A stretch of DNA of 64,000 nucleotides from an uncultured Gemmatimonadota bacterium (GCA_951812955.1 OX638340.1:576001-640000), one strand, 5' to 3'. Counted from the stretch's first letter, positions 20,164 to 41,749 are shown. Notes: generated from the letters alone by a model not told the origin. Made by a program: numbers and translations.

Positions 20164-20208
20164 AGAATGACACTCCAGTGGATGCCGGTGGTGAATGCCG
20201 CCATCGCT

Positions 20209-21276: not shown

Positions 21277-21481
21277 CGATGACTGCTCCTCGTGTTCCTG
21301 CCATGTACCGTGTCAGCCCGTCAATACCGACTTGTGGGGCCGGCCCCAATAACGTAATATCAGGTAATCCTGTCAAGTACATCTATACAAGCGGGGAAGG
21401 CCCTTCATTCAATAAAACCGCGGTCCGTGCCGAAGCAGATTCTATCGGCCGGCGGCACGACGGGCCCGGCCTCGAATAGCC

Positions 21482-22767: not shown

Positions 22768-24711
22768 TCACGCGTCCGCGTCCGTTCTCAGATCGACCCG
22801 GACCGGGTGGGCCAGCGCGATGAGATCTTCGATATCGAACGAGGCGAGCAGGCCGAAACAGAAGAGCGGCGACAGCGTTTCATACCGTCCCGGTTCATCG
22901 ATCAGCCGTTGAAGGCTTGCAAGTCCCCGGCGCAGCTCGATTTCTTCCACCGCGTGACTGCTCAGGGACGATGCCATGAGCGCGACTACAGAAGAAGCGG
23001 GACCCACGGCCGTCAAGCCGGACAGGGCTGCTGCCTCGTGATCCAAGACCGCCGCGAGCTGCGCGACCTGCAGCCCCAGCATCCTTTCGCCGCCCGATGA
23101 GAGCATCATCGTCCACTGATGCGGCGCCTTGCCCAGTTCACACGCGCCCTGCATGACCACTTCCACCACCATGGCCGCGTTCCCTTCCCGCAGGGCTTCC
23201 GCTACCGGGGCCGACGCGCCCCGGCTTCCGGCGTCCGTCAGGATCAGTCGCTTTTTCGCGTATTCCCGCGTCGATGGAACGGTGGTACGGACAGGAAGCA
23301 CCCAGCCGTCCCGCAAATGGCAATGGCTGTAAGTCGTTTGGCGGCCGTCGCCGGATTCCGATGCCTGCTTGATCATTTCTTCAACCGGGAAGGGCCGGTA
23401 ACGTAGAATGGATCTGAGCCGGTCCCGTCCCGCCTTCTGCCATCGGCGCATCGCGGCCGGTTCCCCTGGTGGCTTTACGCGTTTCAGCCCAAGCGCCTCG
23501 GACCGGGCCAGGGTAACGAAATCGGCGTTTCCAATCGGCGTTCCTACGGTCAGTTCTTCTTCGGAACGCACCTCGTCGGCCGAGGGGATCTCCTCGTCGC
23601 GGCCGCACGCGCCCGGCAGAAAATGCCGGTTCAGGAACCGGTAGAAACTCTCCCTGTGCTCCCGTTCGTAGTTGTGGGTGCCCGGGTCGATGTTGTTGTG
23701 GAATTCAAAGGCATCCTGCCTTCCGTACGACGCGTAAAGCGGCCGGACCGGTTCGTAGACGGATGGTCTGGCCCTGGCGGTCTGGAAGCAGCAGTCGTCA
23801 TATTCGTTATACAGCAGCAGGGCCGGGCGCGGCGCAAGCATGGCCGTGAGTACAGGATAATCGGCCGTGGAGGCGAGATCCGCGGCATTCTGTTCGATGT
23901 CGCCGCGGTCGGCCGGGTGTTTGATCCGGCTGTCCAGGCCGATGTAACCGGCATTGGGCGCGGCGAGACGCACCCGCGTGTCCAGGGCGGCCAGGATAAT
24001 CGTCTGCCATCCGCCGCCGGACAGTCCGGTCACGGCTATACGCTCCGGATCGACATGTTCCTGATTCAGCAGCACGTCCAGCGCTCGGCTCATGGCGAGG
24101 TAGAAAACGGCGATACCGGCAACTCCGCACAGGTCCAGGTAAGCTGCGTTGTTGTGCTGGTAGCCCGGTCCCTGCAACTCGCCGAACCCCAGCCACTCGG
24201 GGTTCAGCGCTACCATGCCCCGCTTGGCCAGGTTGATGCATCGTTCCTGCTTGTAGTCCACCGCTTTGCCCGGGGGACCGACATGCCCGTTCAGGTTCAG
24301 CACCCCCGGCGTTGTATCTCCTAAATCATCCGGTTCATAAAGCAGCGCCGGGATGACGAGACCGGGCTGACCGGGCCAACCGGGCCGACCAGTACTGGCA
24401 GGACTACCGGGCAACGCGTGGTAGGTCAGCTTGCGGATCCGGTATCCTTTGCCGGTCTCGATCACGTCTTTCCACTCGACACGGAGCGCTCCCTCTCGCC
24501 ATTCGTCGGGAACGCCCTTGAAAATAACCTCCTCCAGCATGGTCCGACGCATCTTCGCGGCTTCTGCGTCCCAGGTATTCGCATCTGGAAGCCTGAAACC
24601 GGGAATACGGCCCAGCATATAAGTTCGGAGGGTCTCCATGGCATCGGGTTCACTGCGTGACGGCGATGGCCGCATTACCGCCCTGTCGTCATCCCGATCC
24701 GTTTCATTCAT
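22768..24711 (-). CDS. alpha/beta hydrolase (acetyl-xylan-esterase / dienelactone-hydrolase-like) with C-terminal extension
   Basis: Nucleophile elbow 'AVTGLSGGGWQT'. ATG 24711 has GAGGAG 8 nt upstream and overlaps the transglutaminase stop (ATGAATGA). Confidence 0.6.
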   Translation of the reverse strand: MNETDRDDDRAVMRPSPSRSEPDAMETLRTYMLGRIPGFRLPDANTWDAEAAKMRRTMLEEVIFKGVPDEWREGALRVEWKDVIETGKGYRIRKLTYHALPGSPASTGRPGWPGQPGLVIPALLYEPDDLGDTTPGVLNLNGHVGPPGKAVDYKQERCINLAKRGMVALNPEWLGFGELQGPGYQHNNAAYLDLCGVAGIAVFYLAMSRALDVLLNQEHVDPERIAVTGLSGGGWQTIILAALDTRVRLAAPNAGYIGLDSRIKHPADRGDIEQNAADLASTADYPVLTAMLAPRPALLLYNEYDDCCFQTARARPSVYEPVRPLYASYGRQDAFEFHNNIDPGTHNYEREHRESFYRFLNRHFLPGACGRDEEIPSADEVRSEEELTVGTPIGNADFVTLARSEALGLKRVKPPGEPAAMRRWQKAGRDRLRSILRYRPFPVEEMIKQASESGDGRQTTYSHCHLRDGWVLPVRTTVPSTREYAKKRLILTDAGSRGASAPVAEALREGNAAMVVEVVMQGACELGKAPHQWTMMLSSGGERMLGLQVAQLAAVLDHEAAALSGLTAVGPASSVVALMASSLSSHAVEEIELRRGLASLQRLIDEPGRYETLSPLFCFGLLASFDIEDLIALAHPVRVDLRTDADA

Positions 24712-25621
24712 CGGCGCGTCTCCTCTCGACCGGATTGCGCCGTATCGGGTTATTTTCCGAAAGAGGCCGCATGGTCACAGCTACTTCGATCTCGATCTCA
24801 CCACCGCCCTGCAACACGCCGTGCGTGGGAGAAACGTCCCTGTAATCTCTACCCACGGCCACGCGCACATACCGCTCATCGACCAGGGTTGCATTCGTGG
24901 GATCGAATGCGGTCCAGCCGAGTTCGGGCAACTGGCACTCCACCCAGGCGTGCGTGGTCGTCATTCCATCTCCGCTGACTTCCGCTGCAACGTCATGGAG
25001 ATAGCCGGATACGTACCGGGCGGGTATGCCCCAGGTACGCGCGATGGCGATCATGACGTGGGCGTAATCCTGGCAGACGCCGCGTCCGCTATCCAGTATA
25101 TGTTCAATTGTCGAGGAAAACGTAGTGGTTCCAGGATCATAGTGGAAGCGATCGTACAGCGTGGCCGAAAGCCGCCCCAACGCGTTCAGCGGGTCGTCCG
25201 TGGGCTTGATCCCGTTCTCTCGAACGAAGCGTTCAAGGACTGATGAAGGCCTGGCCAGGGCGCTATGGTCCAGAAAAACCCGATGATGAAACGAGTTGCG
25301 CCAACCCCTGATGGTCGCCCATGCCTCGTCTTCTATACGCTCCGAAGATGATTCGCAAGGAGTCACATCGACCGTGGATCGTGCCGTGATTACCAGTGAC
25401 CGGTGTTCGCGGTACAGGTGAAACTGGTGCCTGGTATTTCCGAAACTGTCCTCGACTTGAAAGAGCGATCCGGTCGGCTCCGTATCGATCCGGAAACCAG
25501 ATACGCGCTGTCTGCGGTCTTCCGTCGGTTTCAAAGCCAGCGACATCGCGCAGTTGCGCACGGGAATGCCGTAGCGGTATTTCGTGACGTGTTCGAGTTC
25601 GTAACGTACGTTTCCGACCAT
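24704..25621 (-). CDS. transglutaminase-like cysteine peptidase family protein
   Basis: N-terminal 'YELEHVTKYRY' (Bact_transglu_N type). Core 'GRGVCQDYAHVMIAIARTWGIPARYVSGY' with catalytic Cys; 'HAWVE' His. Confidence 0.85.
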   Translation of the reverse strand: MVGNVRYELEHVTKYRYGIPVRNCAMSLALKPTEDRRQRVSGFRIDTEPTGSLFQVEDSFGNTRHQFHLYREHRSLVITARSTVDVTPCESSSERIEDEAWATIRGWRNSFHHRVFLDHSALARPSSVLERFVRENGIKPTDDPLNALGRLSATLYDRFHYDPGTTTFSSTIEHILDSGRGVCQDYAHVMIAIARTWGIPARYVSGYLHDVAAEVSGDGMTTTHAWVECQLPELGWTAFDPTNATLVDERYVRVAVGRDYRDVSPTHGVLQGGGEIEIEVAVTMRPLSENNPIRRNPVERRRADE

Positions 25622-25625
25622 GGCG

Positions 25626-26594
25626 TCAGTGAGCCGGTAGAATCTCCAGCGGGTAGTCTATGTATGCGTCTATGACAAGGTGATGGAGTTTTTTGCTGTC
25701 GGCATGTACCCGGTCGAGTACCGGTTGCCATACCGCTACGTCGTTCCGGCGTGCCGTTACGCATTTGCACAGCGTGTCGCCCAGTCCAAGCGCTTCCCGG
25801 CTCGAATTCGGCGCCGGACCGTGGCCTATGGCGCGCAAAACTTCGGCGGCCGAATCGACGGAACGGCGGATCGAAGCAGGAAGCAGGCCATCTGTTACGA
25901 GCAGATCCAGCACCTGGCCGGGCTGGACCACCACGCTGTAGGTATGCACGTAGGCGTCGAATGCGTGAAACGCGTGCAGCAGGTTCGCCCAGTCCGCGTC
26001 GAAGGATTCGTCCTGCCGGCCGTGATCGGCGATCTGCGCGAGCATGACCGCGGCGGAGAGCTGCACCCTTTCGATATATCTACCCAGCTGAATGAAATGC
26101 CAGCCTTCGTCGCGGTACATGGTGGCGTCGGTCACGCCGGCAAACGTGTTGATTTCCACTGAAGTGCCGGCGTAAAACGACTCGGGGGTCGTCTTCCAGA
26201 TTTCCTGGATGTTCAGCTTCTGCAGGTGCAGATAGGCCGTGTTTAATGAAAGCCACATCTCCGCGCTGATGTAGTTGCGGACCTGCCTGGCGTTTTCCCT
26301 TGCGTACACGAAACAATTCCAGATGGAATCCGGATTCGTGGGCTCGAAGGTAAGATGGTCGGCAAGGGTGTACGAATCAGCGAGTGTGTAGTCATCACTG
26401 CGGAAGGCTTCAAGTGTGCCCGCGGGCGGCGCCTGGTTCATGCTGCGGTAAACCCGGTTCCAGCCGAAGTGGATTTCCCTCAGCGGACGATCCACGAGCG
26501 TTTCCACCTGCAGTTGCATCAAACGACACAGGTGCGCCGCACGTTCCAGGTATCTCCCCATCCAATAAAGACCTTGAGCGCTTCTGGACAGCAT
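25626..26594 (-). CDS. alpha-E domain protein (DUF403 type)
   Basis: 'MLSRSAQGLYWMGRYLERAAHLCRL' is the hallmark N-terminus. The start codon directly abuts the ATP-grasp stop (TAAATG). Confidence 0.8.
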   Translation of the reverse strand: MLSRSAQGLYWMGRYLERAAHLCRLMQLQVETLVDRPLREIHFGWNRVYRSMNQAPPAGTLEAFRSDDYTLADSYTLADHLTFEPTNPDSIWNCFVYARENARQVRNYISAEMWLSLNTAYLHLQKLNIQEIWKTTPESFYAGTSVEINTFAGVTDATMYRDEGWHFIQLGRYIERVQLSAAVMLAQIADHGRQDESFDADWANLLHAFHAFDAYVHTYSVVVQPGQVLDLLVTDGLLPASIRRSVDSAAEVLRAIGHGPAPNSSREALGLGDTLCKCVTARRNDVAVWQPVLDRVHADSKKLHHLVIDAYIDYPLEILPAH

Positions 26595-28028
26595 TTAATC
26601 TCCCAGGACCCAGATGTCTTTGCCTCCCCCGCCCTGGCTGGAGTTCACGACGAGACTTCCCTCACGCAGCGCCACACGGCAGAATGCCCCCGGGACGATG
26701 CGCGTCTCGCGTCCGTGCAGGACAAAAGGGCGCAGGTCCACGTGTCGCGCCGCGGCGCGGCCCTCGATCATGCAGGGAGCGCGTGAAAGGTCGAGCACGG
26801 GTTGCGCAATGAAATCGGCCGGATTTTCCAGGATCTCGCGGATGTAGGCATCCCGCACCGCAGAGGTCGATCGGGGACCGACCAGCATGCCATAGCCCCC
26901 GGACTCGCCCACCCTTTTAACGATGAGATCCTCCAGATTGTCCAGCGTGTATTCCAGGTCTTCCTCCCTCCGGCAGATGTAGGTTTTTACGTTCATAAGC
27001 AGCGGTTCTTCGCCCAGATAGTAACGTATCATGTCCGGAACGTAGGCGTACACGCTCTTGTCGTCTGCAACCCCCGTGCCCGGTGCATTCGCCAGGGTAA
27101 CGTTTCCGGCCCGATAGACTCCCATCAGCCCGGGAAGTCCCAGCAGAGAGTCCGGACGGAAAACCAAAGGGTCAAGGAAGTCGTCGTCCACCCGCCGGTA
27201 TATGACGTCCACCTTGCGCAGGCCCGACGTGGTGCGCATGTACACGTAACCCCCGTTGACAAGCAGGTCCCGGCCTTCTACCAGGGTCGCACCGATCTCT
27301 TCGGCCAGGTAAATATGTTCGTAGAACGCCGAATTGTATACGCCAGGCGTCAGCAAAACCACGCACGGATCGGGATCTTCCCGGGGTGCGAGTTCCTTCA
27401 GGATTTCACGAAGCAGGCGGCCGTAGTGCTCGACCTCCTGTACCCGGCAACTGCGATAAAGCCTTCGAAGATTGGCCTTCACCGCCTTCCGGTTGGCGAC
27501 CATGTAGGACACGCCGGAGGGCACACGGAGGTTGTCCTCGAGGACGTGGAACCCCTCGTTCGTGCGCACCAGATCCGTTCCACAGACGGCGACATACGTG
27601 CCGTGGGGGACGTTTATGCCCCGCATTTCCACGCGATACTGGGGACAACCGTGCACCATGTCGACGGGAATGACCCCGTCCTCGACGATACGGGCTGATC
27701 CGTAGATGTCGGCCAGGAAAAGGTTCAGGGCTTTCAGGCGCTGGGTAAGTCCGGCTTCGAGTTGCCGCCATTCCCCGGCTGTGATAAGACGGGGTAGACA
27801 GTCGACCGGCATAATTCGTTCATTGGCCTCATCGCCGCCGTAGACTGTAAACGTGATGCCTTCGCTGGAAAAGGAATGGGTGACCCTTTCCTGCATGCGA
27901 ACGAGTTCTTCAACAGGAAGCCTGAGCAGGGAATCGTAGAGCGTACGGCAGTGATCACGGGGGTTGCCGTCGGGCTGGAACATCTCGTCGTAGAAAGCGC
28001 TGTCGATTTCGTAATCTTCAAAGTCCAT
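26595..28028 (-). CDS. circularly permuted type-2 ATP-grasp protein
   Basis: 477 aa. 'YRRVDDDFLDP', 'NAPGTGVADDKSVYAYVP' and 'VKRVGESGGYGMLVG' are characteristic of the DUF404/DUF407 ATP-grasp family. AGGAGA SD. Confidence 0.85.
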   Translation of the reverse strand: MDFEDYEIDSAFYDEMFQPDGNPRDHCRTLYDSLLRLPVEELVRMQERVTHSFSSEGITFTVYGGDEANERIMPVDCLPRLITAGEWRQLEAGLTQRLKALNLFLADIYGSARIVEDGVIPVDMVHGCPQYRVEMRGINVPHGTYVAVCGTDLVRTNEGFHVLEDNLRVPSGVSYMVANRKAVKANLRRLYRSCRVQEVEHYGRLLREILKELAPREDPDPCVVLLTPGVYNSAFYEHIYLAEEIGATLVEGRDLLVNGGYVYMRTTSGLRKVDVIYRRVDDDFLDPLVFRPDSLLGLPGLMGVYRAGNVTLANAPGTGVADDKSVYAYVPDMIRYYLGEEPLLMNVKTYICRREEDLEYTLDNLEDLIVKRVGESGGYGMLVGPRSTSAVRDAYIREILENPADFIAQPVLDLSRAPCMIEGRAAARHVDLRPFVLHGRETRIVPGAFCRVALREGSLVVNSSQGGGGKDIWVLGD

Positions 28029-28451
28029 AACGAGGGTCTCCTATCTTTGGACCAGCGAGATCCTTGTCCTGGAACGGCAGGATATTTCGGGCTCAAAGGC
28101 GCCCTTCATACCTTGCTCATGCATTTATCACATCTTTCTCATGCTTTCTACTGCATAAGCATGTTATATGTGGTCATGCAATAGATCAAGCGAAGTTCTG
28201 AATCATCGCGATGCCGGCCAGACACGCAGAATTGATCCTGCACATTTGGAGAATTTCCAAACATTTTCAATACTGAAGTAAATTGAAACATTTTCATTGC
28301 GCTTTCCCTGTGCAGGGGTATTTTGCGTTTTAGTTCGAGTTAGCCAGCCGGTTTTCGTCACAGAATAGACAATTCAACAACCTCAAATTGCTACGCTTTA
28401 ATGTAATATGTTGATAACCGCGGGTTTATCCATCGTGCGGGAGGCGGACGA

Positions 28452-30788
28452 ATGGTAATGGAGTTTGGCAATATCCTTACCGCTTACTTCGATTTCATCT
28501 GGATGTCGTTCCTGCTTCTGGGTCCGATGTTGATGCTGGGTCTGCTGCTTTCGGGCCTGATCCACGTTTTCATCTCCCGGGAAGCGATACTCAGATGGCT
28601 TCAGGACGACAGCCTTCGCTCGGTCTCAATCAGTTCCGCCGTAGGCGTTCCGGTACCGCTCTGCAGCTGTTCCGTCGTTCCCGTAGTTGCCGAAATGCGA
28701 CGAAAGGGGGCTTCCCGCTCATCCTGCATGGCCTTCCTGATTACGGCGCCTGAAACCGGGGCCGACTCCATCCTCGTCACGAACGCTTTTTTCGGCTTCA
28801 TCGCCGCCGTTGTGCGACCTGTCATCAGTTTTATCACAGCCGTCGTGGCGGGTATTTTCTGCATCGGCCTGATCCGGGACGATAGTGGCGAGGCCAAGCC
28901 GGAGGAGGAAGACCACGGACACGCCCACCACGACCATGACCACGGTCACGACCATGGACATGACCACGATCATGACCACGATCACTCGGTCCACGATCCG
29001 CTGCTGTCGGACAAGGATGACTGCTATGTAAGCCCCTCCGCCATGAAGATCCTCATGACGAAGTGGATCAAGGGGTTGACTACCGTGGCGTCCACCTGGA
29101 GGTTCGGATCGTGGATCAAACCGGAATTCTACCGGGAGATCATCGGAGAGCAACCGGCGAAATCCGCGAATCGGACCGAACTGGATGAGGTGGAAGAAAA
29201 ATACCCCGGGCTCGATTTCAAGAAGATCGTCAAGCATATCTTCCACTACGGCTTTGTCGAGATCGCCGATGATATACTCTTCGCGCTGCTCGTCGGTATC
29301 GCGCTGGGCGGCGTGCTGTTCCTGGTCATACCGGCCGACCTGATGTCCAACGAATACGCACGCTGGCTTTCCTACCCCGTAATGATCATCGTCGGCGTGC
29401 CCCTTTACATCTGCGCCTCCGCCAGCACGCCGATTGCCGCCGCGCTGGTCGCCCGGGGCGTCAGTCCAGGGGCCGCCCTGATATTCCTGATGACAGGCCC
29501 CGCGACCAACACAAGCACCATCGCCATCATCATGAGTCAGTTCGGCGCGCGTTTCGCGGCCGTATACGTCACGTCAGTCATCGCGGTCACCGCGGTGATC
29601 GGCATAGCCATCGATTTCATACTGGTGGCCACCGGGTTTGCCATTTCCGTCAACCTGTTGCCTTCCGATTCCCCCACGCTTCAAATTCTGCAGTGGGGCG
29701 GCGCGCTCGGGCTGATCGCGCTTATCGTCTGGAGGTACCGCGCCGGCGCCATGCGCAGCGGTTACGAAGACCTCATGCTCAACATCCGACCCTTCTCCCG
29801 GCCATGGCGGAACACGTGGAAGCGGCTGACCCGTGACCGGTCGTTCCGGGGTACGATTTCACCCACCACACCCATGGGCATGATGCTGTGGGGCTTGCTG
29901 CTGGTCCTCTTTCTTGGCAGCGGGTTCACGGCCGTGCCGCCGGGTCACGTCGGATACGGCCGGTTGTTCGGCGAGGTATACTGGAAAGACCTTCAGCCCG
30001 GGCTTCATTACCTGGCGCCGCGCCCCCTCGTCCAGGTCGACAAGTGGCCAGTCAGGGAAGTAAAATCAATTATGTCCGAGACACCGTACGAGTACGTGTC
30101 GGGCGACCTGAACATGCTCACGCTCACCCTGGACGTCCAGTACCGGGTAAACGACCCGTACACGTATCACTACCGTACGGTCGATCCGGAAGAGATCATC
30201 GAAGACGCGGTGCGCGAGCACGTTCGTACTTTTGTCAACGCACGTGACCTGGATCGGCTCCTCACTGCATACCGGGCGGAACTGGAAGATGAGCTGACGA
30301 ATCTCTTCGTGACGGATGCCCGGATGCACGGCGACAAGTCGGTGCTTGGCACCGTCGACCTCGTGAAGGTCAGCCTGCTGAACGTCACCCCGGCGGCGGA
30401 AGCCCTGAGTTCCTTCCGGGAGATTTCAAGCGCCCAGGAAGACAGGGAAAGAATCATCGTCAACGCGCAACGGTTCATGGTGTCCCTGGTGCCGCGCGCT
30501 CACGGCAATGCCGAGTATGAGAAAGAACAGGCCGATGGAGAGGCATTTCGCAAGGTGGCGACCTCCGCGGCGGAAGCGGATGCCATTATGGTCATTTCTT
30601 CTGCCATGCAGACGGCGCCGGAAGTCCTGCGGAACATGCTGTGGCGGGAAAAGTTGGAATCCGCTCTCGCCGGCAATCCCAAGATTATCGTGCCCAACAG
30701 ACAGAGTTTCAACAAGGTCGCGATCTGGAAAAAGAGGCCGGCGGAAGCCGCCGCCCCATCCGCCAAGACAGGAGGTAAAGGCAAATGA
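28452..30788 (+). CDS. fusion protein: DUF318/ArsP-type (SO_0444-like Cu/Zn efflux) permease + His-rich loop + HflK-like SPFH (Band 7) domain
   Basis: One uninterrupted 778-codon ORF. N-terminal half is polytopic with 'VPVPLCSCSVVPVVAEM' and 'APETGADS'. Loop with 14 His in 29 residues. From about aa 474, a TM anchor 'MGMMLWGLLLVLFLGSGF' followed by 'VPPGHVGYGRLFGEVYWKDLQPGLHY' and a coiled-coil tail. Confidence 0.75.
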   Translation: MVMEFGNILTAYFDFIWMSFLLLGPMLMLGLLLSGLIHVFISREAILRWLQDDSLRSVSISSAVGVPVPLCSCSVVPVVAEMRRKGASRSSCMAFLITAPETGADSILVTNAFFGFIAAVVRPVISFITAVVAGIFCIGLIRDDSGEAKPEEEDHGHAHHDHDHGHDHGHDHDHDHDHSVHDPLLSDKDDCYVSPSAMKILMTKWIKGLTTVASTWRFGSWIKPEFYREIIGEQPAKSANRTELDEVEEKYPGLDFKKIVKHIFHYGFVEIADDILFALLVGIALGGVLFLVIPADLMSNEYARWLSYPVMIIVGVPLYICASASTPIAAALVARGVSPGAALIFLMTGPATNTSTIAIIMSQFGARFAAVYVTSVIAVTAVIGIAIDFILVATGFAISVNLLPSDSPTLQILQWGGALGLIALIVWRYRAGAMRSGYEDLMLNIRPFSRPWRNTWKRLTRDRSFRGTISPTTPMGMMLWGLLLVLFLGSGFTAVPPGHVGYGRLFGEVYWKDLQPGLHYLAPRPLVQVDKWPVREVKSIMSETPYEYVSGDLNMLTLTLDVQYRVNDPYTYHYRTVDPEEIIEDAVREHVRTFVNARDLDRLLTAYRAELEDELTNLFVTDARMHGDKSVLGTVDLVKVSLLNVTPAAEALSSFREISSAQEDRERIIVNAQRFMVSLVPRAHGNAEYEKEQADGEAFRKVATSAAEADAIMVISSAMQTAPEVLRNMLWREKLESALAGNPKIIVPNRQSFNKVAIWKKRPAEAAAPSAKTGGKGK

Positions 30789-31678
30789 CCGGTAAGGGAC
30801 GTGGCATCCGAACGGCCATCGTCGCGCTCGTGCTGGCGGCGATCGTTTACGACTGTTTCTATGTGATCAACGAAACCCAGCAGGGGGTCCTGACGAACTT
30901 CGGCCGGATTTCGCCTCCGGTGAAGCAGCCCGGACTACATGTCAAGTGGCCCCGACCGATTTCAAGAGTCTACAAGGTGGACCGGAGGCTGCAGACACTC
31001 ACCGACGTGTCCCATGAGTTGATTACCGAAGATCAGAAGAACATCCTGATCAGCGGCTACCTGCTCTGGCGCATCGTAGACCCAATCCTGTATGTCGAGG
31101 CGATACGCACGGGCGCCAATGCAGCCGAACGTCTGCGGGATCTCTACCTTTCGAGCAGTGGGATCGTGATCAGTAACAAGGCCCGTGATGCATTCATCAG
31201 CCTTGGGCTGGAACACGAAGACCTGCACGAAGCGGCCCGTGACATCCTGAGCAGTGTCGCCCCGATTGCCAGTACCAACTATGGTATCGAGGTGCTGAAA
31301 GCCGGTATCATCGAATACACGCTGCCCATGGAAAACCGCCCGGCCGTGATCCAGCGTATGATATCGGAGCGCGCGCGCATCGCGGCCCGGTACCGCAGCG
31401 AGGGCGAGGAGATGGCCATCCGCATCGAAGCGCTGGCAATAAACGAACATGAGAAGCTTATGGCGGAGGCGCACGCGGAAGCCACGGCCATACTCGGTGA
31501 GGCCGAAGCGGAAGCGATGGCTTTGCTGGGCAGGGCTTACCGGAGGGACCCGGCGTTCTACCGGTTCATCCGGGCCCTTGACAGTTATGATCTGATTATC
31601 GACAAAAACACGACCCTTATGTTGCCGGCCGACAACGAACTGTTCAGATACCTGGACAGCAGAACGGTTCCCAGGTAG
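30785..31678 (+). CDS. hflC: HflC-like SPFH-domain protein
   Basis: ATG overlaps the upstream stop (ATGA). 'YVINETQQGVLTNFGRI..PGLHVKWP'. The C-terminus 'DPAFYRFIRALDSY...LFRYL' parallels E. coli HflC 'DPDFYAFIRSLRAY...FFRYM'. Confidence 0.8.
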   Translation: MTGKGRGIRTAIVALVLAAIVYDCFYVINETQQGVLTNFGRISPPVKQPGLHVKWPRPISRVYKVDRRLQTLTDVSHELITEDQKNILISGYLLWRIVDPILYVEAIRTGANAAERLRDLYLSSSGIVISNKARDAFISLGLEHEDLHEAARDILSSVAPIASTNYGIEVLKAGIIEYTLPMENRPAVIQRMISERARIAARYRSEGEEMAIRIEALAINEHEKLMAEAHAEATAILGEAEAEAMALLGRAYRRDPAFYRFIRALDSYDLIIDKNTTLMLPADNELFRYLDSRTVPR

Positions 31679-31695
31679 AGCGAGATCTCAAACCC

Positions 31696-33033
31696 ATGAC
31701 GAACGAAAAGCGACCTTTACCTTACAGCACGCGCGTAATCTATGCCATGTTCGATTGGGCGCGCACCTACGGCTGGAACCGGCTGTTCTGGAGCGTGATC
31801 GCCTTTTCCATCGTGGCCGTGCTGGCCAGCGGGTTTTATATCATAAAGAAAGAAGAGCAGGGCGTCCTCGTTCGTTTCGGCAAGGTGGTGGACGAGAACC
31901 TTGGTCCGGGCATTCATTACTGCGTTCCGTTCATATACGAAACCCACATACGCAAGGTGAAGCGCATCGTCCGTGTCTCTATCGTCAGCGAAGGGACGGC
32001 TGGGGATACGCACGTCACGCTGCTGTCCGGCGACACGAACCTTGTGGAGGTGGATGTGGCCGTGCAGTACAAGATAGACAACCTGCGAAACTATCTCTTT
32101 GCGGTTTCGGACCCGACGATGTTGATGACCATGATCGTACGGGAAGAAATGGTCAATATCGTGGGGCAGAATTTCATCGACCTTATACTCACGTCTAACC
32201 GGAACATCATCGAACGTCATCTCCACGACTTCCTCGCCGGACGTCTCGAAACGATTGACATCGGTATCGAACTCGTCGACCTGAACATCCTGGACATCCG
32301 CCCCATCGAAGAGACCGTAGAGGCCTTCCGGGACGTCAACGATGCCATTTCCGAGCGCATGCAGTCCATCAGCAACGCCAACCTGCGCAGGGAGAAACTG
32401 GTCGCCCGCACGAAGGGCCAGACGGAAGCGATTGTCATGGATGCGAAAGCCACGGCGAGAGAACGCGTTCTGCAGGCCGAAAGCAGTGCCGGCGCATTCT
32501 CGAAACTGCTAGACGAATACGCCAAGCAACCGGCCCAGGTGGGCATTACCCGTTACTGGCAGCGGATGCGAACGATTTTCGCCGAAGCGAACCTGGCCGC
32601 GGTTAATCCCGGCAACGACGCGAATATCGAAGTCAACCTGGTAGACAGCGGCACGGCGTTGACGCCGGTGGAAATGGCTTTCGATTCGCCGGAAGCGTTG
32701 TCGGCCGCCGGCCCCGATTCGCTGGACAGGCCGGTTTATTCGACCTTGCCCCCGGATATTCATCGATATGAGAACATCGACAGGGACGGTTTCCTGATCG
32801 AAGGCAGATTCCATAGCAGGAACACCGAACGGGATCACCTTCCCGTCGCCAGGCCTCGATCGCTCATTTTCGACACGCCTTCCATCTTCAGCCATGGACA
32901 CGTGGCGACAAGCAGCACGGACACGGCGAATCAATCAGGCGAGAAGGCCATGGTCGATACCATGCACGACGAAGAAAGCGAAGAAGAATCTAAAGAGGGC
33001 ACGGAAGGGAGCCAAAGTGATCCGAAGCAATAA
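31696..33033 (+). CDS. hflK: HflK-like SPFH-domain protein with long acidic C-terminal tail
   Basis: 'FYIIKKEEQGVLVRFGKVVDENLGPGIHYCVPF', 'VEAFRDVNDAISE', then a coiled coil. The last 110 aa or so are non-homologous, ending 'DEESEEESKEGTEGSQSD'. Confidence 0.75.
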   Translation: MTNEKRPLPYSTRVIYAMFDWARTYGWNRLFWSVIAFSIVAVLASGFYIIKKEEQGVLVRFGKVVDENLGPGIHYCVPFIYETHIRKVKRIVRVSIVSEGTAGDTHVTLLSGDTNLVEVDVAVQYKIDNLRNYLFAVSDPTMLMTMIVREEMVNIVGQNFIDLILTSNRNIIERHLHDFLAGRLETIDIGIELVDLNILDIRPIEETVEAFRDVNDAISERMQSISNANLRREKLVARTKGQTEAIVMDAKATARERVLQAESSAGAFSKLLDEYAKQPAQVGITRYWQRMRTIFAEANLAAVNPGNDANIEVNLVDSGTALTPVEMAFDSPEALSAAGPDSLDRPVYSTLPPDIHRYENIDRDGFLIEGRFHSRNTERDHLPVARPRSLIFDTPSIFSHGHVATSSTDTANQSGEKAMVDTMHDEESEEESKEGTEGSQSDPKQ

Positions 33034-34180
33034 ATCGCCCGGTCTTGCCTCGCTGGCAGCCGCCATTTTCATCACATTGCTGGCACACCCCTTGCCGGCC
33101 AGGGCGGAAACAGGCATATCCTCGGATGCCATCGTATTCGGTCAAAGCGCATGCTTTACGGGTCCCAACCGGAATCTGGGACTGTACTACAGGGCAGGCA
33201 TTCTTTCCGCATTCGAGGAACGGAACCGAGAGGGCGGGATCAACGGAAGGACGTTAAGGCTGCTTTCGCTGGATGATGGATATGAGCCGGAACAGGCCGC
33301 AGCGAACGCGGAGCGGTTTGCGGCGGAAAATGACGTCTTCGCGGTAATCGGCGGCGTGGGGACGCCGACTGCAAAGCGCATCGCCCCCGTTCTCCGCTCA
33401 GCCGACATACCCTTCGTCGGTCCTTTCACTGGCGCGGATTTCCTGCGTAATTTCGACCGGTTCCCCAACGTCATCAACCTCCGGGCCGCGTACCTGGATG
33501 AAGTCGTGACCATGGTTGATTATATCGTAAATGATCTGGGAAAGAACCGGTTCGGCGTCATCTACCAGGACGACGCCTTTGGACGCTCTGTACTTCGAGA
33601 CTTCCAGATTGCGCTCAACGCCCATGACCTGCCAATCCTTGCAAAGACCGCCCATTCCCGGAACACCCACGCGGTACACGCGGGGTTGTTTATGATCTCC
33701 AAGGCGGACCTCGATGCCATTCTGATTGTGGGATCGTATGCCGCAAACTCTGAGATCATCAACCTGTCCCACTCCCTGGGTCATGACTACATCGTTGCGA
33801 ATCTTTCTTTTGTCCTTTCCCACGAACTGAAGAAGCTGGTCGAAAACCATTCGAACAAAATCCTGGTGACCGAGGTAATACCGGATCCGAACAGCACTTC
33901 CAGCCTGGTAGTCCAGCGTTTCCTGGACGCGTTGCGGCCGGAATACGGAGAGGCCGAGACTGTCACGGCCCTGGTGAACGAAGTGGCCCTGGAAGGCTAC
34001 ATCCTCGGACGTTTCGTAATTGATGTGCTGGAGCGCATGGAAGGCGTTTTGACACGGGAACAATTCATGAACGTCGCGCTGTCTCCCGATAAAGTCATGA
34101 TCGACGACTGGACCCTGGAGTTCGCGCCCGGTACGAATACGGGGTCAAGATACATCCGGCTTACCAATCTGGGCGAATAG
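33017..34180 (+). CDS. periplasmic substrate-binding protein (Leu/Ile/Val-binding, Peripla_BP_6 type), orphan
   Basis: GTG 33017 (GGAAGGGA upstream) gives signal peptide 'LASLAAAIFITLLAHPLPARA'. 'IVFGQSACFTGPN...LDDGYEP...VIGGVGTPT'. No ABC permease or ATPase gene nearby. Confidence 0.75.
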   Translation: MIRSNKSPGLASLAAAIFITLLAHPLPARAETGISSDAIVFGQSACFTGPNRNLGLYYRAGILSAFEERNREGGINGRTLRLLSLDDGYEPEQAAANAERFAAENDVFAVIGGVGTPTAKRIAPVLRSADIPFVGPFTGADFLRNFDRFPNVINLRAAYLDEVVTMVDYIVNDLGKNRFGVIYQDDAFGRSVLRDFQIALNAHDLPILAKTAHSRNTHAVHAGLFMISKADLDAILIVGSYAANSEIINLSHSLGHDYIVANLSFVLSHELKKLVENHSNKILVTEVIPDPNSTSSLVVQRFLDALRPEYGEAETVTALVNEVALEGYILGRFVIDVLERMEGVLTREQFMNVALSPDKVMIDDWTLEFAPGTNTGSRYIRLTNLGE

Positions 34181-34204
34181 CAACCTTTACACGAGGACTG
34201 ACCT

Positions 34205-34693
34205 GTGAAGAAGGTGGATGAGTTTACGGTCGAGGAAATCGGCGAGGAGTGGTTGCGCGAGCTTTACAAGGTCGTCGCGCTCCGGCGCGGTACCATGTTC
34301 AGGATGATTACTGAATCGACCCGTCTTCTCTTGTTCGGTAACGCGGGTGGCGCGGCGCTGATCATCGGCTTCATGAGCGCGGCAACGGGCGACCAGGCGT
34401 CCTCCTACCACTGGTTCAGCTTGTTTTCACTGCTCTCGTTCGCGCTAGGCACCCTTGCCTCCGCCCTGACGATGATCCTGGTGGCCGTAGTCTCGGTAAA
34501 AGAAGCCCACGGCGCCGAGAACGCGCTGAAACGTTTCGTCGATGGAGAAATCAACCGGTCACAGGTCATGTTCACCGTTGAAGAGCAAACCTTCCGTCTC
34601 GCCGATTCGGCCACCGTATCGGGTATTGTGAGTGCACTGGGGTTCATGGTGGGCGGGTTGGTCACGATAGCACTGCTTACGATTTTCTTCTAA
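34205..34693 (+). CDS. hypothetical small membrane protein (3-4 predicted TM segments)
   Basis: GTG start with GAGGA 7 nt upstream. Hydrophobic stretches 'LLLFGNAGGAALIIGFM', 'FSLFSLLSFALGTLASALTMILVAVV', 'GIVSALGFMVGGLVTIALLTIFF'. No family recognised. Confidence 0.5.
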   Translation: MKKVDEFTVEEIGEEWLRELYKVVALRRGTMFRMITESTRLLLFGNAGGAALIIGFMSAATGDQASSYHWFSLFSLLSFALGTLASALTMILVAVVSVKEAHGAENALKRFVDGEINRSQVMFTVEEQTFRLADSATVSGIVSALGFMVGGLVTIALLTIFF

Positions 34694-34766
34694 ATCGGCA
34701 CGCCGCAGTATAGCATACGTCCTCGCAGGAACATACACGCACATAGATGGTTAGGACGCTTCCGCT

Positions 34767-35642
34767 GTGTTGAATGATATTGTATTGCTTCTCCTGACCT
34801 ACTCGGCGGCGATCTTTGCCGTATCCCTTCTGGGCGGCAAACTTTCGGCCATCGTCACCATGACCCATTTCCGCACGCAACTGGTCATGAGTCTCGTGGC
34901 GGGGTTTCTGCTGGGCGTCGCCATGTACCACCTCCTGTTGCACAGCCTGGAGGATATCCCCGGACCGTATGCCGGTGAAATCGCCGTGGGGTGTGCGGTA
35001 CTTGGCGTCATCATGATTATCGTGCTGCTGCGAATATTCCGGTTTCATCAACACGAATTCGATCACGAAGCAGTGGAGACGCCGGACCAGCATGGCCACC
35101 ACGATCATCATGGTTCGGTAAACGTCAACCCCCGCAGCGTGTTCGGTGTCGCCACGGGTCTCGGGCTGCACACGGTAACCGAAGGTATCGCCCTCGGCGC
35201 GAGCATGCGTATCGGTTTGATTCATGAAGGGGAAACGATTCTTGTCGGCCTGGGGGTATTTCTGGCGATCATGCTGCATAAGCCGTTGGACGCGTACTCC
35301 ATTATAGGATTGATGAGAGTGTCGGGCTACGGCGACCGGGCTTGTACGTTGACTAACGTCGGTTTCGCCCTGTTGTGTCCGCTCATTACGATATTGACCT
35401 ACCTTGGCGTCGGCGTGTTGAGTGAACTCAACGAGCTGCATGTCGTGGGATACATCATGGCCTTCGCCGCCGGAGTCTTTCTGTGCATCTCCCTGAGCGA
35501 TCTGCTGCCCGAGATACAGTTTCACACTCACGACCGCGGAATACTCGCCGTCGCCTTCCTCATCGGGATCGGTCTCGCCTACGCCCTGTTCTATTTCGAA
35601 TCCGACACCATGCATGGGCTGGAGACGCTGGACACCCATTAG
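34767..35642 (+). CDS. ZIP family divalent-metal transporter
   Basis: 8-TM-like profile. 'GLHTVTEGIALGAS' and 'MLHKPLDAYSIIG' metal-site helices. His-rich cytoplasmic loop 'HQHEFDHEAVETPDQHGHHDHHG'. 'CISLSDLLPE'. Confidence 0.75.
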   Translation: MLNDIVLLLLTYSAAIFAVSLLGGKLSAIVTMTHFRTQLVMSLVAGFLLGVAMYHLLLHSLEDIPGPYAGEIAVGCAVLGVIMIIVLLRIFRFHQHEFDHEAVETPDQHGHHDHHGSVNVNPRSVFGVATGLGLHTVTEGIALGASMRIGLIHEGETILVGLGVFLAIMLHKPLDAYSIIGLMRVSGYGDRACTLTNVGFALLCPLITILTYLGVGVLSELNELHVVGYIMAFAAGVFLCISLSDLLPEIQFHTHDRGILAVAFLIGIGLAYALFYFESDTMHGLETLDTH

Positions 35643-35669
35643 CGTTCCCCCGCACTGCGAGTACTGGAG

Positions 35670-37898
35670 ATGACGACAAACTCCACGCAAGCGCAGCACT
35701 TCGACGTGGATACCGAAACCCGCGTATTCCACGTAGAGGGCATGACCTGCAGCGCGTGTTCCGCGCGGGTTGAGAAAATCCTTTCCGATGTCCCGGGTGT
35801 CGCCGCCGCCCACGTAAACCTTGCCCTTGAACGTGCGACACTTACAGTCAGGCCAACCCTGGATGTTGACACGCTGGCCGGGCCCGTGGCCGATGCCGGA
35901 TACAGGCTGACTCCCGTACAGGATGATCGATACGAACCTGAAATGGCACGCGGTCAGGCAAGCCGGGATCGTGTCGCCATGATCACCGCGATCATCGTGA
36001 CCTCCCCCTTTCTTCTGCAGATGCTGAGCAGACTGCTGCAAAGCTGGACCGGCATCGAATGGCATATGCCGGTCTACGCGGAAGCGCTGGCGGCTACTGT
36101 TCTGCAGATCGGTATCGGCGCCCGTTATTACCGGAGCGCTTTTCACGCGTTGCGCGGCGGCGGCGCGAACATGGACGTCCTGGTGGCCCTGGGCACGTCG
36201 TCCGCCTTCGCATACAGCTGGTACCTGGTGATCAGTCAGGGTTCCGGCGCGTCGGGGCAACTCTACTTCGAAGCCTCGGCGATCATCATTACTCTCGTGC
36301 TCGTCGGCAAGCACATCGAAACCCGTGCGCGGCGAAGCGCGGGCCGTGCGATACGCGAGCTGCTCGCCATCCGGCCGGTTACCGCGCAGATACGAACGGC
36401 GGACGGTACGGAGTGGGAAATGCCGGTGCACGCTTTGAAGGTGGGTGACGTCGTGATCTGCCGCCCCGGCGACCGGGTAGCCGTGGACGGCGTCGTGCTG
36501 CGGGGAGAGGCCGAAGTCGACGAGGCCCTCATCACCGGCGAGAGCGTACCCGTTCCGAAAAGCCCTGCCGACACCGCGATTGCCGGATCGTTGAATATCA
36601 ACGGCTTCATGGAAATCGAGGCCCGAGCCGTCGGAAGTGATTCGACCCTGGGCCGGGTGATCCGCCTGGTCGAAAACGCCCAGGCCGCCAAACCAGCCAT
36701 CCAGCGCCTGGTGGATCGAATCAGCGGCGTATTCGTACCTGTTGTCGTAGGCCTGGCCGTGATCACTTTTGCCGGGTGGATCCTCGCAGGGGGCGATCTT
36801 GAAACTGCTTTGATAAATGCCGTTTCCGTCCTCGTCATCGCCTGTCCCTGCGCGCTGGGACTGGCGACACCGACGGCGATCGTGGCCGGCGCCGGAGCGG
36901 CGGCCCGGGCAGGTATCCTGGTTAAGGACATCGAATCCCTGGAACAGGCTCACGGGCTGACTCACATCGTATTCGACAAGACGGGAACGCTGACCGAAGG
37001 CAGGTCAGTCCTCGCGTCCCTGGTTCCCCTGGCCGACCGAGGCGAAGAGGAGTTGCTTTCAATCGCCGCGGGGCTGCAGCAGGGCAGTGAGCATCCCTTC
37101 GCCAGGGCATTCAAGTTGGCCGCGGCCGGACGGAGCGTGTCACCCGCCGGGGTTGAACGATTCAGAAGCGTGGTGGCGCGCGGCGTCGAGGGCGAAGTCG
37201 AAGGGACGCGTTACCTGCTCGGCAACCGAAGACTCTTCCACGAGGCCTGCGGGGATACGCCACCGCCAGATTCCCCGCAATCCGGCGGCGTGTCCGCGGT
37301 CTGGCTGGCCGCCCGAGGAGATGCCGGATGCGAATACCTGGCTCGCTTCGATCTCGTCGATGCATTACGCGCCGACGCGGCTGAAGTGGTTGACAGGCTC
37401 AGGAAGCTCGGGGTAAGGATCTTGCTCGTATCGGGCGATGCGGAATCCGTAGTGGCGCAGATCGGCAGCGCGGCGGGTGTCGACGAATCGTACGGCGGCG
37501 CCACGCCGGAAGACAAGGAGCGTATCGTCGGACGATTGACGGAGAGCGGGGCGAAGGTCTGCATGGTCGGCGACGGGATCAACGACGCGCCGGCCCTCGC
37601 CCGCGCAACCGTGGGTATCGCCATGGGTTCCGGTACGGACGTGGCGATGGAAACGGCAGCGATCACGCTGATGAGACCCGAACCGGTCCTGGTGGCCGGC
37701 GCCATCGACGTGAGTCGAAGGACAATCCGGAAAATAAAGCAGAATCTGTTCTGGGCGTTTATCTACAACGTAATCGGACTTCCGCTGGCCGCAACGGGAT
37801 TCCTCTTCCCGGCGCTCGCCGCGGCCATGATGGCCTGCTCCAGCATCAGCGTCGTGCTCAACTCTATGACGCTCCGCGCATGGCGGCCCGATTCGTAA
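35670..37898 (+). CDS. copA: copper-translocating P1B-type ATPase
   Basis: HMA domain 'GMTCSACSARVEK'. TM 'CPCALGLATP'. 'DKTGTLTEG', 'SEHPFARA', 'MVGDGINDAPAL'. Confidence 0.9.
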   Translation: MTTNSTQAQHFDVDTETRVFHVEGMTCSACSARVEKILSDVPGVAAAHVNLALERATLTVRPTLDVDTLAGPVADAGYRLTPVQDDRYEPEMARGQASRDRVAMITAIIVTSPFLLQMLSRLLQSWTGIEWHMPVYAEALAATVLQIGIGARYYRSAFHALRGGGANMDVLVALGTSSAFAYSWYLVISQGSGASGQLYFEASAIIITLVLVGKHIETRARRSAGRAIRELLAIRPVTAQIRTADGTEWEMPVHALKVGDVVICRPGDRVAVDGVVLRGEAEVDEALITGESVPVPKSPADTAIAGSLNINGFMEIEARAVGSDSTLGRVIRLVENAQAAKPAIQRLVDRISGVFVPVVVGLAVITFAGWILAGGDLETALINAVSVLVIACPCALGLATPTAIVAGAGAAARAGILVKDIESLEQAHGLTHIVFDKTGTLTEGRSVLASLVPLADRGEEELLSIAAGLQQGSEHPFARAFKLAAAGRSVSPAGVERFRSVVARGVEGEVEGTRYLLGNRRLFHEACGDTPPPDSPQSGGVSAVWLAARGDAGCEYLARFDLVDALRADAAEVVDRLRKLGVRILLVSGDAESVVAQIGSAAGVDESYGGATPEDKERIVGRLTESGAKVCMVGDGINDAPALARATVGIAMGSGTDVAMETAAITLMRPEPVLVAGAIDVSRRTIRKIKQNLFWAFIYNVIGLPLAATGFLFPALAAAMMACSSISVVLNSMTLRAWRPDS

Positions 37899-37959
37899 TG
37901 GTAATACGCTGTTCCCGCGATGATCCGGTCATCCGACCGTTCGCCGTACTGATGAAACG

Positions 37960-40116: not shown

Positions 40117-41327
40117 GGCATTACGTCCCGGAGGGTATTGATGGGATGGTAACGGCCATCCTTTCCGATCACCGTGAGGAAAACGGCGTCGGAACCCTGG
40201 TTGTCCCCGGCTCCGAATTCAAGACGAAGACCGCCCATATCGATGGTCCCGGCCTGGTTCAGACTTTCCACGAGACAAGTCCGCCTTACGTCGGGACCGC
40301 AGCCTTCGAGCGCGGTGATGGCCAGTCTGCCCGCCAGGTATCCTTCGAAAGAAACGAATCCGGGTGTGGAGCCGGGCGCGTGCGCGGCGAGTGCGCGGCG
40401 ATACCGCACTGCAATGGCAATATTGCCGGCTGCAGGGAAGGGTACTACCTGGGAAACCAGTACACCCTGGCCATCGGGACCCAGCTCACCGGCCAGGGCG
40501 TTGCTTCCCACGAAGGAGATCGTCGCGAACACCGGGTTGAATCCCACGTGCCGCGCCCATGAGATGAGCGTAGCGACCGGATGGTACGCGCCGATGACGA
40601 CCACGGCGTCCGGCTTGCCGGCCTGCAGATCTAGCAGCCCCGCCTTGATCGCCGTGGTGTTCCGGGGATACACGCCGATCGCCACCGGATCCAGGTTCCT
40701 TCGATCCAGCGCTCGCCGCACACCCCGGTAACCCACCCGGCCGAAGGAATCGTTCTGGTACATCACGCCTATGCGCGTGATCCCCAGATCGCGCGAAAGG
40801 CGGTCGACGATTTCCTCGGTTTCCTGGAAATAGGAGGCGCGTAGATTGATGACGCCGGTTTCCGTGTTGTCCCTTAGGAAGATCGCGCCGGTAAATGGCG
40901 CGATATAGGGCACACCGGCCTGCGACGTGATGGGAACGGCCGAACGGGAAGTCGGCGTGCCGACCGCGCCGATCAGCGCGAATACGCCTTCGTCCTCAAT
41001 CAGCTTGCGCGTGTTTGCGATGGCGGCTTCGGGTTCGTAGGCGTCGTCGAGCGTAATGAGCGCAAGCCGCCGTCCATGTACGCCGCCCCTGCGGTTTGCT
41101 TCCTGGAAGGCCGCCTCGATGCCGAGGTTCATGTTGCGGCCGAGTTCCCTGGCAGGACCGCTGAACGCCGCCGACTGTCCGAACAGAATTTGTTCGTCCG
41201 TTACGCCGGGTTCTTCGATCTGGGAGGCGTTCGCGCCGCTGTGTGCTGGAATTAAAGCGGGAGAGAACGCCGTCGCACCAAGGGCGAGTAGTATGGCGAC
41301 CGCCCAGTGGTCACGCGTTCGTCTCAT
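40113..41327 (-). CDS. periplasmic substrate-binding protein (Peripla_BP_6 type), translationally coupled to the kinase
   Basis: Signal peptide 'AVAILLALGATAFSPALIPAHS'. 'ILFGQSAAFSGPA...LDDAYEP...LIGAVGTPT'. 4-nt overlaps at both ends (41324-41327 and 40113-40116). Confidence 0.8.
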   Translation of the reverse strand: MRRTRDHWAVAILLALGATAFSPALIPAHSGANASQIEEPGVTDEQILFGQSAAFSGPARELGRNMNLGIEAAFQEANRRGGVHGRRLALITLDDAYEPEAAIANTRKLIEDEGVFALIGAVGTPTSRSAVPITSQAGVPYIAPFTGAIFLRDNTETGVINLRASYFQETEEIVDRLSRDLGITRIGVMYQNDSFGRVGYRGVRRALDRRNLDPVAIGVYPRNTTAIKAGLLDLQAGKPDAVVVIGAYHPVATLISWARHVGFNPVFATISFVGSNALAGELGPDGQGVLVSQVVPFPAAGNIAIAVRYRRALAAHAPGSTPGFVSFEGYLAGRLAITALEGCGPDVRRTCLVESLNQAGTIDMGGLRLEFGAGDNQGSDAVFLTVIGKDGRYHPINTLRDVMP

Positions 41328-41749
41328 CCATTTTCCTTCCGCTTGACGATCGTCAGGACGTTCTTGTCGTTTTCCCGGCGGTAGCTCAGTTCATCCATCA
41401 TGGTCCGAACCAGATAGATGCCGAGACCGCCGACGGGCCGGTCTTCAACCCCAGACTCGATATCCGGTTCCGGGGAGTCGGTAAGCGGGTTGAACGCCGG
41501 GCCTTCGTCCCGCAACTCGATGGTCAACGTTTCGGAATCGGAGTCCAGTACCACTTCGAATTCGTGTTCCGGGTCGTTGGCGTGGCCGTGGGTAACGATG
41601 TTGACGCCCAGTTCCTCAAGGACCAGCTTGACCTGGTACACCATGCCCGGCGGCCATTCTTCCGACTCGCCAAGTTCGTCCACGGCCTCGTAAATCCGTT
41701 CGAGTTGGTCCAGTCTGGTAGGCAGGCGAAGAGAGAGTTTTCTACGCAT
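41324..41749 (-). CDS. RsbW/SpoIIAB-like anti-sigma-factor-type serine kinase (HATPase_c_2)
   Basis: 141 aa. 'VKLVLEELGVNIVTHG' (N-box region), 'IELRDEGPAFNP', 'GGLGIYLVRTMMDELSY'. Confidence 0.75.
   Translation of the reverse strand: MRRKLSLRLPTRLDQLERIYEAVDELGESEEWPPGMVYQVKLVLEELGVNIVTHGHANDPEHEFEVVLDSDSETLTIELRDEGPAFNPLTDSPEPDIESGVEDRPVGGLGIYLVRTMMDELSYRRENDKNVLTIVKRKENG

Follow-up and report, generated by a model that had tools for sequence, protein, structure and literature searches.

A stretch of 64,000 nucleotides (nt) from an uncultured Gemmatimonadota bacterium, referred to here as the window, contains a gene for a 778 amino acid (aa) protein in which a metal permease of the SO_0444/ArsP type runs without interruption into an SPFH domain like that of HflK. 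This fusion is genuine, ancient, widespread and functionally unexplored. It heads a conserved trio of SPFH genes in an array with operon-like packing, and the genes that adjoin it and its relatives include those of zinc importers. We give somewhat better than even chances to the reading that these genes encode a zinc-limitation module, in which the permease is hard-wired into a three-paralogue ring of the HflK/C type. A preliminary description of this DNA had placed three open reading frames (ORFs) here, with the ATGA overlap between the first two, the two halves of the fusion, the VPLCSCSVVP motif, the 14-His loop and the HflC-like nature of the second gene, and all of these are borne out.

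The fusion gene is a single ORF (28452-30788, + strand) with matches in both Pfam and NCBIfam. Its permease half (aa 1-431, 28452..29744, +) matches ArsP_1 (PF03773) over aa 24-388 (1.3e-43, 149.7 bits against a cut-off of 32.3) and the NCBIfam equivalog model for SO_0444 Cu/Zn efflux transporters (NF033936) over aa 19-426, where a score of 314 bits lies barely over the cut-off of 300. The permease core is duplicated, as in the SO_0444/ArsP family, and a Cys-x-Cys in the first repeat forms part of the VPLCSCSVVP motif (CSC at aa 71-73, nt 28662-28670); across 54 close homologues and ten distant ones neither C71 nor C73 varies. A His-rich loop at aa 155-181 (nt 28914-28994) holds 14 His. Searches by sequence and by fold found no solved relative of this half.

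The second half consists of an HflK-type transmembrane (TM) anchor (aa 474-497) followed by a predicted periplasmic SPFH domain and coiled coil (aa 498-778; together 29871..30788, +). Band_7 (PF01145) matches aa 495-671 (8e-13), and aa 482-758 align with Escherichia coli HflK (7vhp, 8.5e-17) in a sequence search of solved structures. In the AlphaFold2 (AF2) model the SPFH domain and then a long coiled-coil helix follow one N-terminal anchor; the best Foldseek match is HflK (7vhq_E, 3e-11), with further fold matches of this half to HflC, prohibitin, erlin, QmcA and stomatin cages, including the stomatin-aquaporin complex. Judged by sequence and modelled fold the SPFH half is HflK-like, and the NCBIfam hflK model (TIGR01933) scores 124.4 bits over aa 510-752, under its cut-off of 159.4.

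The two halves are joined by an Arg-rich cytoplasmic connector (aa 432-473, 29745..29870, +), which is conserved and predicted by AF2 to be helical. The last permease TM helix (aa 408-431) falls inside the SO_0444 model, and residues W427, R428, G432, A433, G437, D440 and N444 at the junction are invariant in 54 homologues. There are 11 K/R in aa 406-473, and aa 433-460 are modelled as a helix. The preliminary description had rightly called this linker Arg-rich, although its length is about 45 aa (aa 429-473) and not ~60, and it is predicted to be a conserved helical segment rather than a neutral, loose spacer. Sequence and model together suggest a topology in which the permease would end in the cytoplasm and be followed by the Arg-rich helix, an N-in anchor, and the periplasmic SPFH domain with its coiled coil.

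The same architecture is present in homologues from many phyla, so that an indel artefact is effectively excluded. Of the 120 best matches listed in a search with the whole protein, at 59-97% identity, nearly all are full length with both domains. An exhaustive search of 50%-identity representatives gives 1,100 matches at E<=1e-30, the best 150 of which are mostly 650-940 aa long with alignments that span the permease and continue into the SPFH part, and ArsP_1 and Band_7 are both found in each of ten distant representatives (26-47% identity). A profile of distant fusions recovers at least 1,896 protein clusters at E<=1e-20, with sources that include Myxococcota, Burkholderiales, Limnocylindrales, Eisenbacteria and others. 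An exact look-up in the databases found no identical copy of the 778-aa protein on record. The idea that an indel or mis-assembly has joined two ordinary genes can be set aside for practical purposes: the uninterrupted form occurs in hundreds of independent assemblies from many phyla, and the junction is conserved at the residue level. In its favour, one locus (L048, 7986-11577) has an ORF of 450 aa for the permease and another of 288 aa for the SPFH part, showing that split forms or errors do occur.

In that same locus an HflC-like gene was not detected. In another (L020, 8001-13228) the fusion is cut to 648 aa and is followed directly by ZIP and ATPase genes, with the HflC-like, HflK-like, binding-protein and 3-TM genes described below all missing. 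Either variant could be real or an assembly error.

In databases the architecture goes under automatic names, 'SO_0444 family Cu/Zn efflux transporter' or 'HflK protein', and literature searches found no paper on a permease-SPFH fusion, nor on a link between SPFH proteins, zinc and sponges. That the preliminary description knew of no characterised transporter-SPFH fusion is a matter of missing literature and not of rarity. It had held that a common, already annotated family would count against its proposal, and this is half the case: the architecture is common and automatically named, yet undescribed in papers. A tblastn search of a plasmid collection found no fusion, and plain hflK/hflC genes only. 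Such plasmid-borne hflK-hflC pairs occur in marine Rhodobacterales, Methylophaga, Vibrio and others (L085, L086; NZ_CP031601.1, NZ_CP143310.1), beside chaperone, cation antiporter or heavy-metal genes and in contexts unrelated to the fusion; the two that were inspected are unrelated stress islands.

Two further SPFH genes follow the fusion, and all three products match PF01145. The first encodes an HflC-like protein of 297 aa (30785-31678, +) that clears TIGR01932 (158.7 bits, cut-off 134.4); its ATG overlaps the fusion stop codon (ATGA, 30785-30788), and from this overlap the gene is taken to be translationally coupled to the fusion. The second encodes another HflK-like protein (445 aa, 31696-33033, +), which passes TIGR01933 by a narrow margin (160.0 bits, cut-off 159.4). 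It ends in an acidic tail, as proposed earlier, which at ~145 aa (aa 301-445, nt 32596-33030; 28 D+E against 11 K+R) is longer than the ~110 aa first given.

This trio is strongly conserved. Among the best 80 genomes of a species-level collection (the close loci, L001-L080) the fusion is followed by the HflC-like gene in 79 and by the HflK-like gene in 77, and in eight of nine genome contexts of remote fusion homologues (the distant contexts) two genes of SPFH size come next, in many cases with the stop codon of one gene overlapping the start codon of the next. Both the architecture and the three-gene synteny put forward in the preliminary description therefore recur, the former in the clusters counted above. 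Conservation of a three-SPFH module over so large an evolutionary distance makes it reasonable to infer an SPFH assembly dedicated to a transporter that is hard-wired into it as the client. The HflC-like gene is the best conserved of the cassette, with 66-99% identity within the close clade (fusion, 57-97%; HflK-like, 44-97%), and can be read as a shared partner that would fit two different K-type subunits. Two distant fusions (L084, 4830-6907; L097, 3534-5567) have a fourth Band_7 gene and an FmdA/AmdA-type amidase gene just upstream.

An HflK/C-like trio raises the question of FtsH. A specialised HflK/C might still enclose this zinc metalloprotease, with the permease delivered to it for rapid turnover when zinc returns, or with FtsH tuned during starvation. 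The HflC-like and HflK-like genes do pass the hflC and hflK equivalog models, there are fold matches to HflK/C-FtsH complexes, and an FtsH link to Zur-regulated HflK/C-like genes has been raised by authors working on Pseudomonas aeruginosa (PMC9431628; PMC11761036). We nevertheless consider this unlikely. No ORF of at least 200 aa with both Walker A and HExGH motifs is present in the window, in agreement with the preliminary description, and ftsH, hfq and hflX are absent from the window and from the recurrent neighbours in the 80 loci, so that the hfq-hflX synteny is also lacking. The E. coli-type models (NF008181 and NF008259) score far under their cut-offs for all three SPFH proteins, and P. 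aeruginosa keeps a separate canonical hflKC besides its Zur-regulated trio (PMC13086221). An NfeD partner, with TM helices plus an oligonucleotide/oligosaccharide-binding (OB) fold or ClpP-like domain, was likewise sought at the locus and gave no match.

The unit does not end at 33033, as the three-gene description had it, and comprises a five-gene core plus a ZIP gene within an array that runs to 37898. The seven genes of the array (28452-37898) lie on the same strand, and each junction is either an overlap or a gap of at most 73 nt; from this packing, and as the terminator scan found no convincing internal terminator, the array looks like one operon. After the SPFH trio come genes for a secreted type I periplasmic binding protein (Peripla_BP_6; 33017-34180, +; PF13458, 3e-44) and a 162-aa three-helix membrane protein of no Pfam family, labelled TMunk (34205-34693, +). 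These five genes form the core common to the close loci, with order and strand kept, the binding protein being present in 76 of the 80 and the 162-aa protein in 74. The last two genes of the array encode a ZupT-like ZIP-family metal transporter (34767-35642, +; PF02535, 2e-16, 60.6 bits against a cut-off of 35.1), which has a His-rich loop of its own, and, 27 nt further on, a P1B-type heavy-metal ATPase with an N-terminal HMA domain (35670-37898, +; TIGR01525, 574.7 bits against a cut-off of 346; TIGR01511, 540 bits), whose core is 37% identical to HmtA of P. aeruginosa. Scans for sigma-70 promoters and terminators returned no more sites than in shuffled sequence, and no Rfam family was found in 27900-38100 at E<=1.

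The neighbours of the cassette associate it with zinc uptake. ZIP or ZnuABC genes adjoin it in 61 of the 69 loci with full flanks, and the two never occur together in a close locus. A ZIP gene lies downstream in 45 of the 80 loci, on the same strand in 40 (gaps of 16-292 nt) and on the opposite strand in five, and ZnuABC adjoins the cassette in 21. In three of the latter arrangements (L046, L053 and L056) znuA, the five-gene cassette, znuC and znuB are on one strand; in L068 znuCBA is followed after 18 nt by the cassette; and in six more loci znuA immediately precedes the cassette on the same strand and znuCB is divergent. ZnuABC is also adjacent in five of the nine distant contexts, on the same strand in four. 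One of these (L096, 1-11400) is an island with a FUR-family gene, ZnuABC, the fusion, two Band_7 genes and a FolE2-type GTP cyclohydrolase (GCHY-1), near S18 and dihydroorotase-like genes, a gene set that we take, from what is generally known of Zur regulons, to be a typical zinc-starvation (Zur) island.

Candidate operators point in the same direction in several loci. In L065 both a perfect TGTTATTTTATAACA box (also given as TGTTATnnnATAACA) and a copy with one mismatch are found upstream of the fusion, at a distance of 230-254 nt; similar boxes precede the znuA-cassette units of L049, L054, L059 and L066, and Zur-type boxes are also found upstream in L070, L078 and L079. A given 12-base palindrome has a chance expectation of ~0.002 in the scanned sequence, as a rough estimate. 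Upstream of the fusion in the window is an intergenic region of 423 nt, which was aligned with the upstream regions of L001-L007 and contains the near-palindrome ATAAGCATGTTAT (28155..28167, no strand assigned), a candidate operator built from Zur/Fur-type box hexamers that may equally serve the divergent ATP-grasp gene. L004 has the perfect palindrome ATAACATGTTAT, and in L002 and L020 it differs at one position. A k-mer search upstream of all 78 fusion genes for a shared operator gave no universal word and only lineage-specific ones. In the same region of the window AAACATTTTCA occurs twice at 28259-28300, 30 nt apart, and is partly present in L005 and absent from other close relatives.

These data bear on the proposal of the preliminary description, in which a Cu/Zn exporter would be confined, gated or quality-controlled under metal excess by an SPFH cage of its own. 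The dedicated assembly remains a reasonable inference, while the exporter role rests on the family name only, and we regard such a cage for an exporter as possible though doubtful. In its favour are the SO_0444 equivalog score above cut-off, the CzcAB-type resistance-nodulation-division (RND) genes that flank 27 of the 80 loci, the CopA-like ATPase in the window's array, and the requirement for SO_0444 in the presence of ZnSO4 or CuCl2 stress (PMC3219624). Against it are the zinc-uptake genes in or beside which the cassette lies in 61 of 69 loci, the ZnuABC genes in five of nine distant contexts, the Zur-type boxes upstream in several loci, and the FolE2 and FUR genes of the L096 island. Moreover, no MerR/ZntR-type regulator is found beside the fusion in the window, and the core includes a periplasmic binding protein, of a type usual in uptake or sensing and not in efflux. 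The label 'Cu/Zn exporter' is therefore doubtful, given neighbours that comprise zinc importers, znu operons, Zur-type boxes and Zur-island genes.

A zinc-limitation module is thus the reading that we prefer. The three SPFH paralogues would together form a ring or cage of the HflK/C type at the periplasmic side of the membrane, where the HflC-like subunit would alternate with two kinds of K-type subunit. As one of these carries the permease, the transporter would be an integral part of the scaffold and not a recruited client. The substrate that the permease may carry across the inner membrane, by way of its Cys-x-Cys and His-rich loop, would be Zn(II) or a comparable thiophilic divalent metal. 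From its context the module would belong to a zinc-limitation (Zur-type) response, be expressed under zinc limitation and work beside a ZIP or ZnuABC importer, and would not be a stand-alone Cu/Zn efflux pump. Operon context, Zur boxes and the presence of the binding protein make a role of the permease in acquisition seem roughly twice as likely as one in efflux.

Several points weigh against this reading. No recognisable Zur box is present in the window, and the Zur-box patterns match few loci, all of them proteobacterial. CzcA-type RND genes neighbour 27 of the 80 close loci and a CopA-like P1B ATPase adjoins just eight, both less consistently than the zinc importers. The AF2 model of the whole fusion is of moderate confidence, with a predicted local distance difference test (pLDDT) score of 64.6. 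The Zur-regulated trio PA2439-PA2437 of P. aeruginosa, compared below, shares just 23-27% identity in its SPFH proteins, and the N-terminal domain of PA2439 has no Pfam match and no profile similarity to ArsP_1. ArsP is an exporter. The only experimental data on the permease family concern efflux, SO_0444 mutants being sensitive to Zn and Cu and the gene ZntR-linked (PMC3219624).

Of the remaining core genes, that of the binding protein begins with a GTG preceded by GGAAGGGAG and overlaps the HflK-like gene by 17 nt. The product has a signal-peptide-like N-terminus, and its nearest solved relative is 4kv7. A metal-binding site was considered and is unlikely, with a single conserved His and no conserved Cys. 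Since no His/Cys cluster is conserved, and GTPT and QxDxFG motifs and many Arg are, the ligand is probably no bare metal ion, and an organic anion or a molecule resembling an amino acid is more likely. Convergent with the end of the cassette (37960-41390, -) is a kinase gene with TorS-sensor, HAMP and HisKA domains beside a second Peripla_BP_6 gene (40116-41390), whose product is 37% identical (7e-78) to the binding protein of the cassette. This pair is conserved in L001-L007 only, and may sense the ligand of the cassette's binding protein.

For the 162-aa protein there are 338 homologues, none of them named and each 162-163 aa in length. It is modelled as three long helices and all-helical (AF2 pLDDT 75), with no significant fold match in the PDB. 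It and the binding protein are missing from all nine distant contexts, and so are additions specific to the close lineage. With the large secondary permease they show a formal likeness to the tripartite ATP-independent periplasmic (TRAP) and tripartite tricarboxylate transporter (TTT) systems, in which a secreted binding protein and a small three-helix membrane protein are combined with such a permease. No relation to DctPQM or TctABC was detected by sequence or fold, and the resemblance is one of analogy.

All 80 of the best carriers are metagenome-assembled genomes, and belong to at least ten phylum-level groups, with labels that include Gemmatimonadota, Latescibacterota, Gamma-, Alpha- and Deltaproteobacteria, Terriglobia, Opitutales, Nitrospinota, Spirochaetia and Binatia. 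The window is ~97% identical to L001 and L005 (Gemmatimonadetes APA_bin_41), the APA bins being symbionts of the sponge Aplysina aerophoba. Many carrier names hint at sponge or coral hosts, RHO bins and Poriferihabitaceae among them suggesting sponges, with the host confirmed for the APA bins only. Cassette identity among the 80 carriers is 57-97%, and the 57-72% seen across phyla, as against 26-47% in the rest of the family, suggests horizontal spread within host-associated communities. It is conceivable, though we think it unlikely, that binding protein, three-helix protein, ArsP-type permease and SPFH trio together make up a novel type of binding-protein-dependent secondary transporter for zinc or a zinc chelate, operating in an SPFH-walled periplasmic nano-compartment. 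On this view the whole five-gene cassette would have passed by horizontal transfer between symbionts of sponges and corals, in no fewer than ten phyla, and would adapt its carriers to hosts in which zinc is scarce.

Among the various other genes nearby, we note a divergent group upstream of the fusion (24704-28028, -) encoding transglutaminase-like, Alpha-E and circularly permuted ATP-grasp proteins, a trio kept beside the cassette in the closest relatives only. An AcrB-type RND pump and a CusB/HlyD-like adaptor are encoded at 17011-21312 (-), ~7 kb upstream of the cassette.

SPFH proteins, among them HflK/C, the prohibitins, stomatin, flotillin and the erlins, build cages on membranes, and the clients that they enclose and the purpose of doing so are still debated. 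With the client encoded in the scaffold gene itself, in thousands of genomes, the effect of an SPFH cage on a transporter could be approached directly. Many of the proteins to which the name 'Cu/Zn efflux transporter' is now given may instead be part of the response to zinc starvation, and their reassignment would alter the picture of zinc homeostasis in a wide range of uncultured bacteria. That a near-identical cassette occurs in symbionts of many phyla hints at selection by zinc supply within sponges. As far as we have searched, a link between the fusion and zinc limitation has not been described; such a link would also point to a role for the so far unexplained SPFH trio that Zur regulates in P. 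aeruginosa.

The cassette can be compared with several known systems. It shares with the E. coli HflK/HflC-FtsH complex (7vhp, 7wi3, 9cz2) an HflK/HflC-like pair with N-in anchor, periplasmic SPFH domain and coiled coil, encoded by adjacent and translationally coupled genes. It differs in having three paralogues rather than two, one K-type subunit being covalently fused to a transporter, in lacking ftsH and the hfq-hflX neighbourhood, and in falling far under the cut-offs of the E. coli-type models. SPFH cages with non-covalent clients, such as stomatin with aquaporin 1 (9zd2) and the SPFH-NfeD pair QmcA-YbbJ (8z5g), likewise combine an SPFH oligomer with a membrane partner, and there is a fold match. 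The client is a separate polypeptide in those complexes, whereas here it is fused in cis and there is no NfeD.

SO_0444 of Shewanella oneidensis and the ArsP family (PF03773) share with the permease half a family-level HMM (hidden Markov model) score, the Cys-x-Cys and the duplicated permease core. SO_0444 itself is a stand-alone protein of ~350 aa encoded beside a ZntR-like regulator (PMC3219624), whereas the 778-aa fusion has ~350 extra HflK-like residues and its neighbours are Znu, ZIP and Zur-island genes.

A further comparison is with the PA2439-PA2434 cluster of P. aeruginosa, whose locus (L087) was recovered via a published primer sequence. The PA2439 promoter is bound by Zur (10.1101/2021.05.28.446167), PA2439-PA2434 transcripts are up 9-14-fold in a znuA mutant (PMC4542158), and the proteins are up under zinc depletion (PMC11761036). 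A 2026 study named the three SPFH proteins PaFlo5-7 and found that deletion phenotypes are only subtle (PMC13086221). PA2439 is 665 aa long, with a polytopic N-terminal domain of 330 aa and a Band_7 domain, and is followed by two Band_7 genes and the HmtA ATPase gene. The two loci therefore share a run of three SPFH genes, of which the first encodes a polytopic domain at the N-terminus, a P1B ATPase gene after them, and a tie to zinc limitation. The P. aeruginosa cluster differs in having neither a binding protein, a 3-TM protein nor a ZIP gene. PA2439 was considered as an instance of the same fusion and rejected, as hhalign aligns the TM anchor and SPFH part only. On these sequence comparisons PA2439-PA2434 is a distant analogue of the window cassette and not its orthologue.

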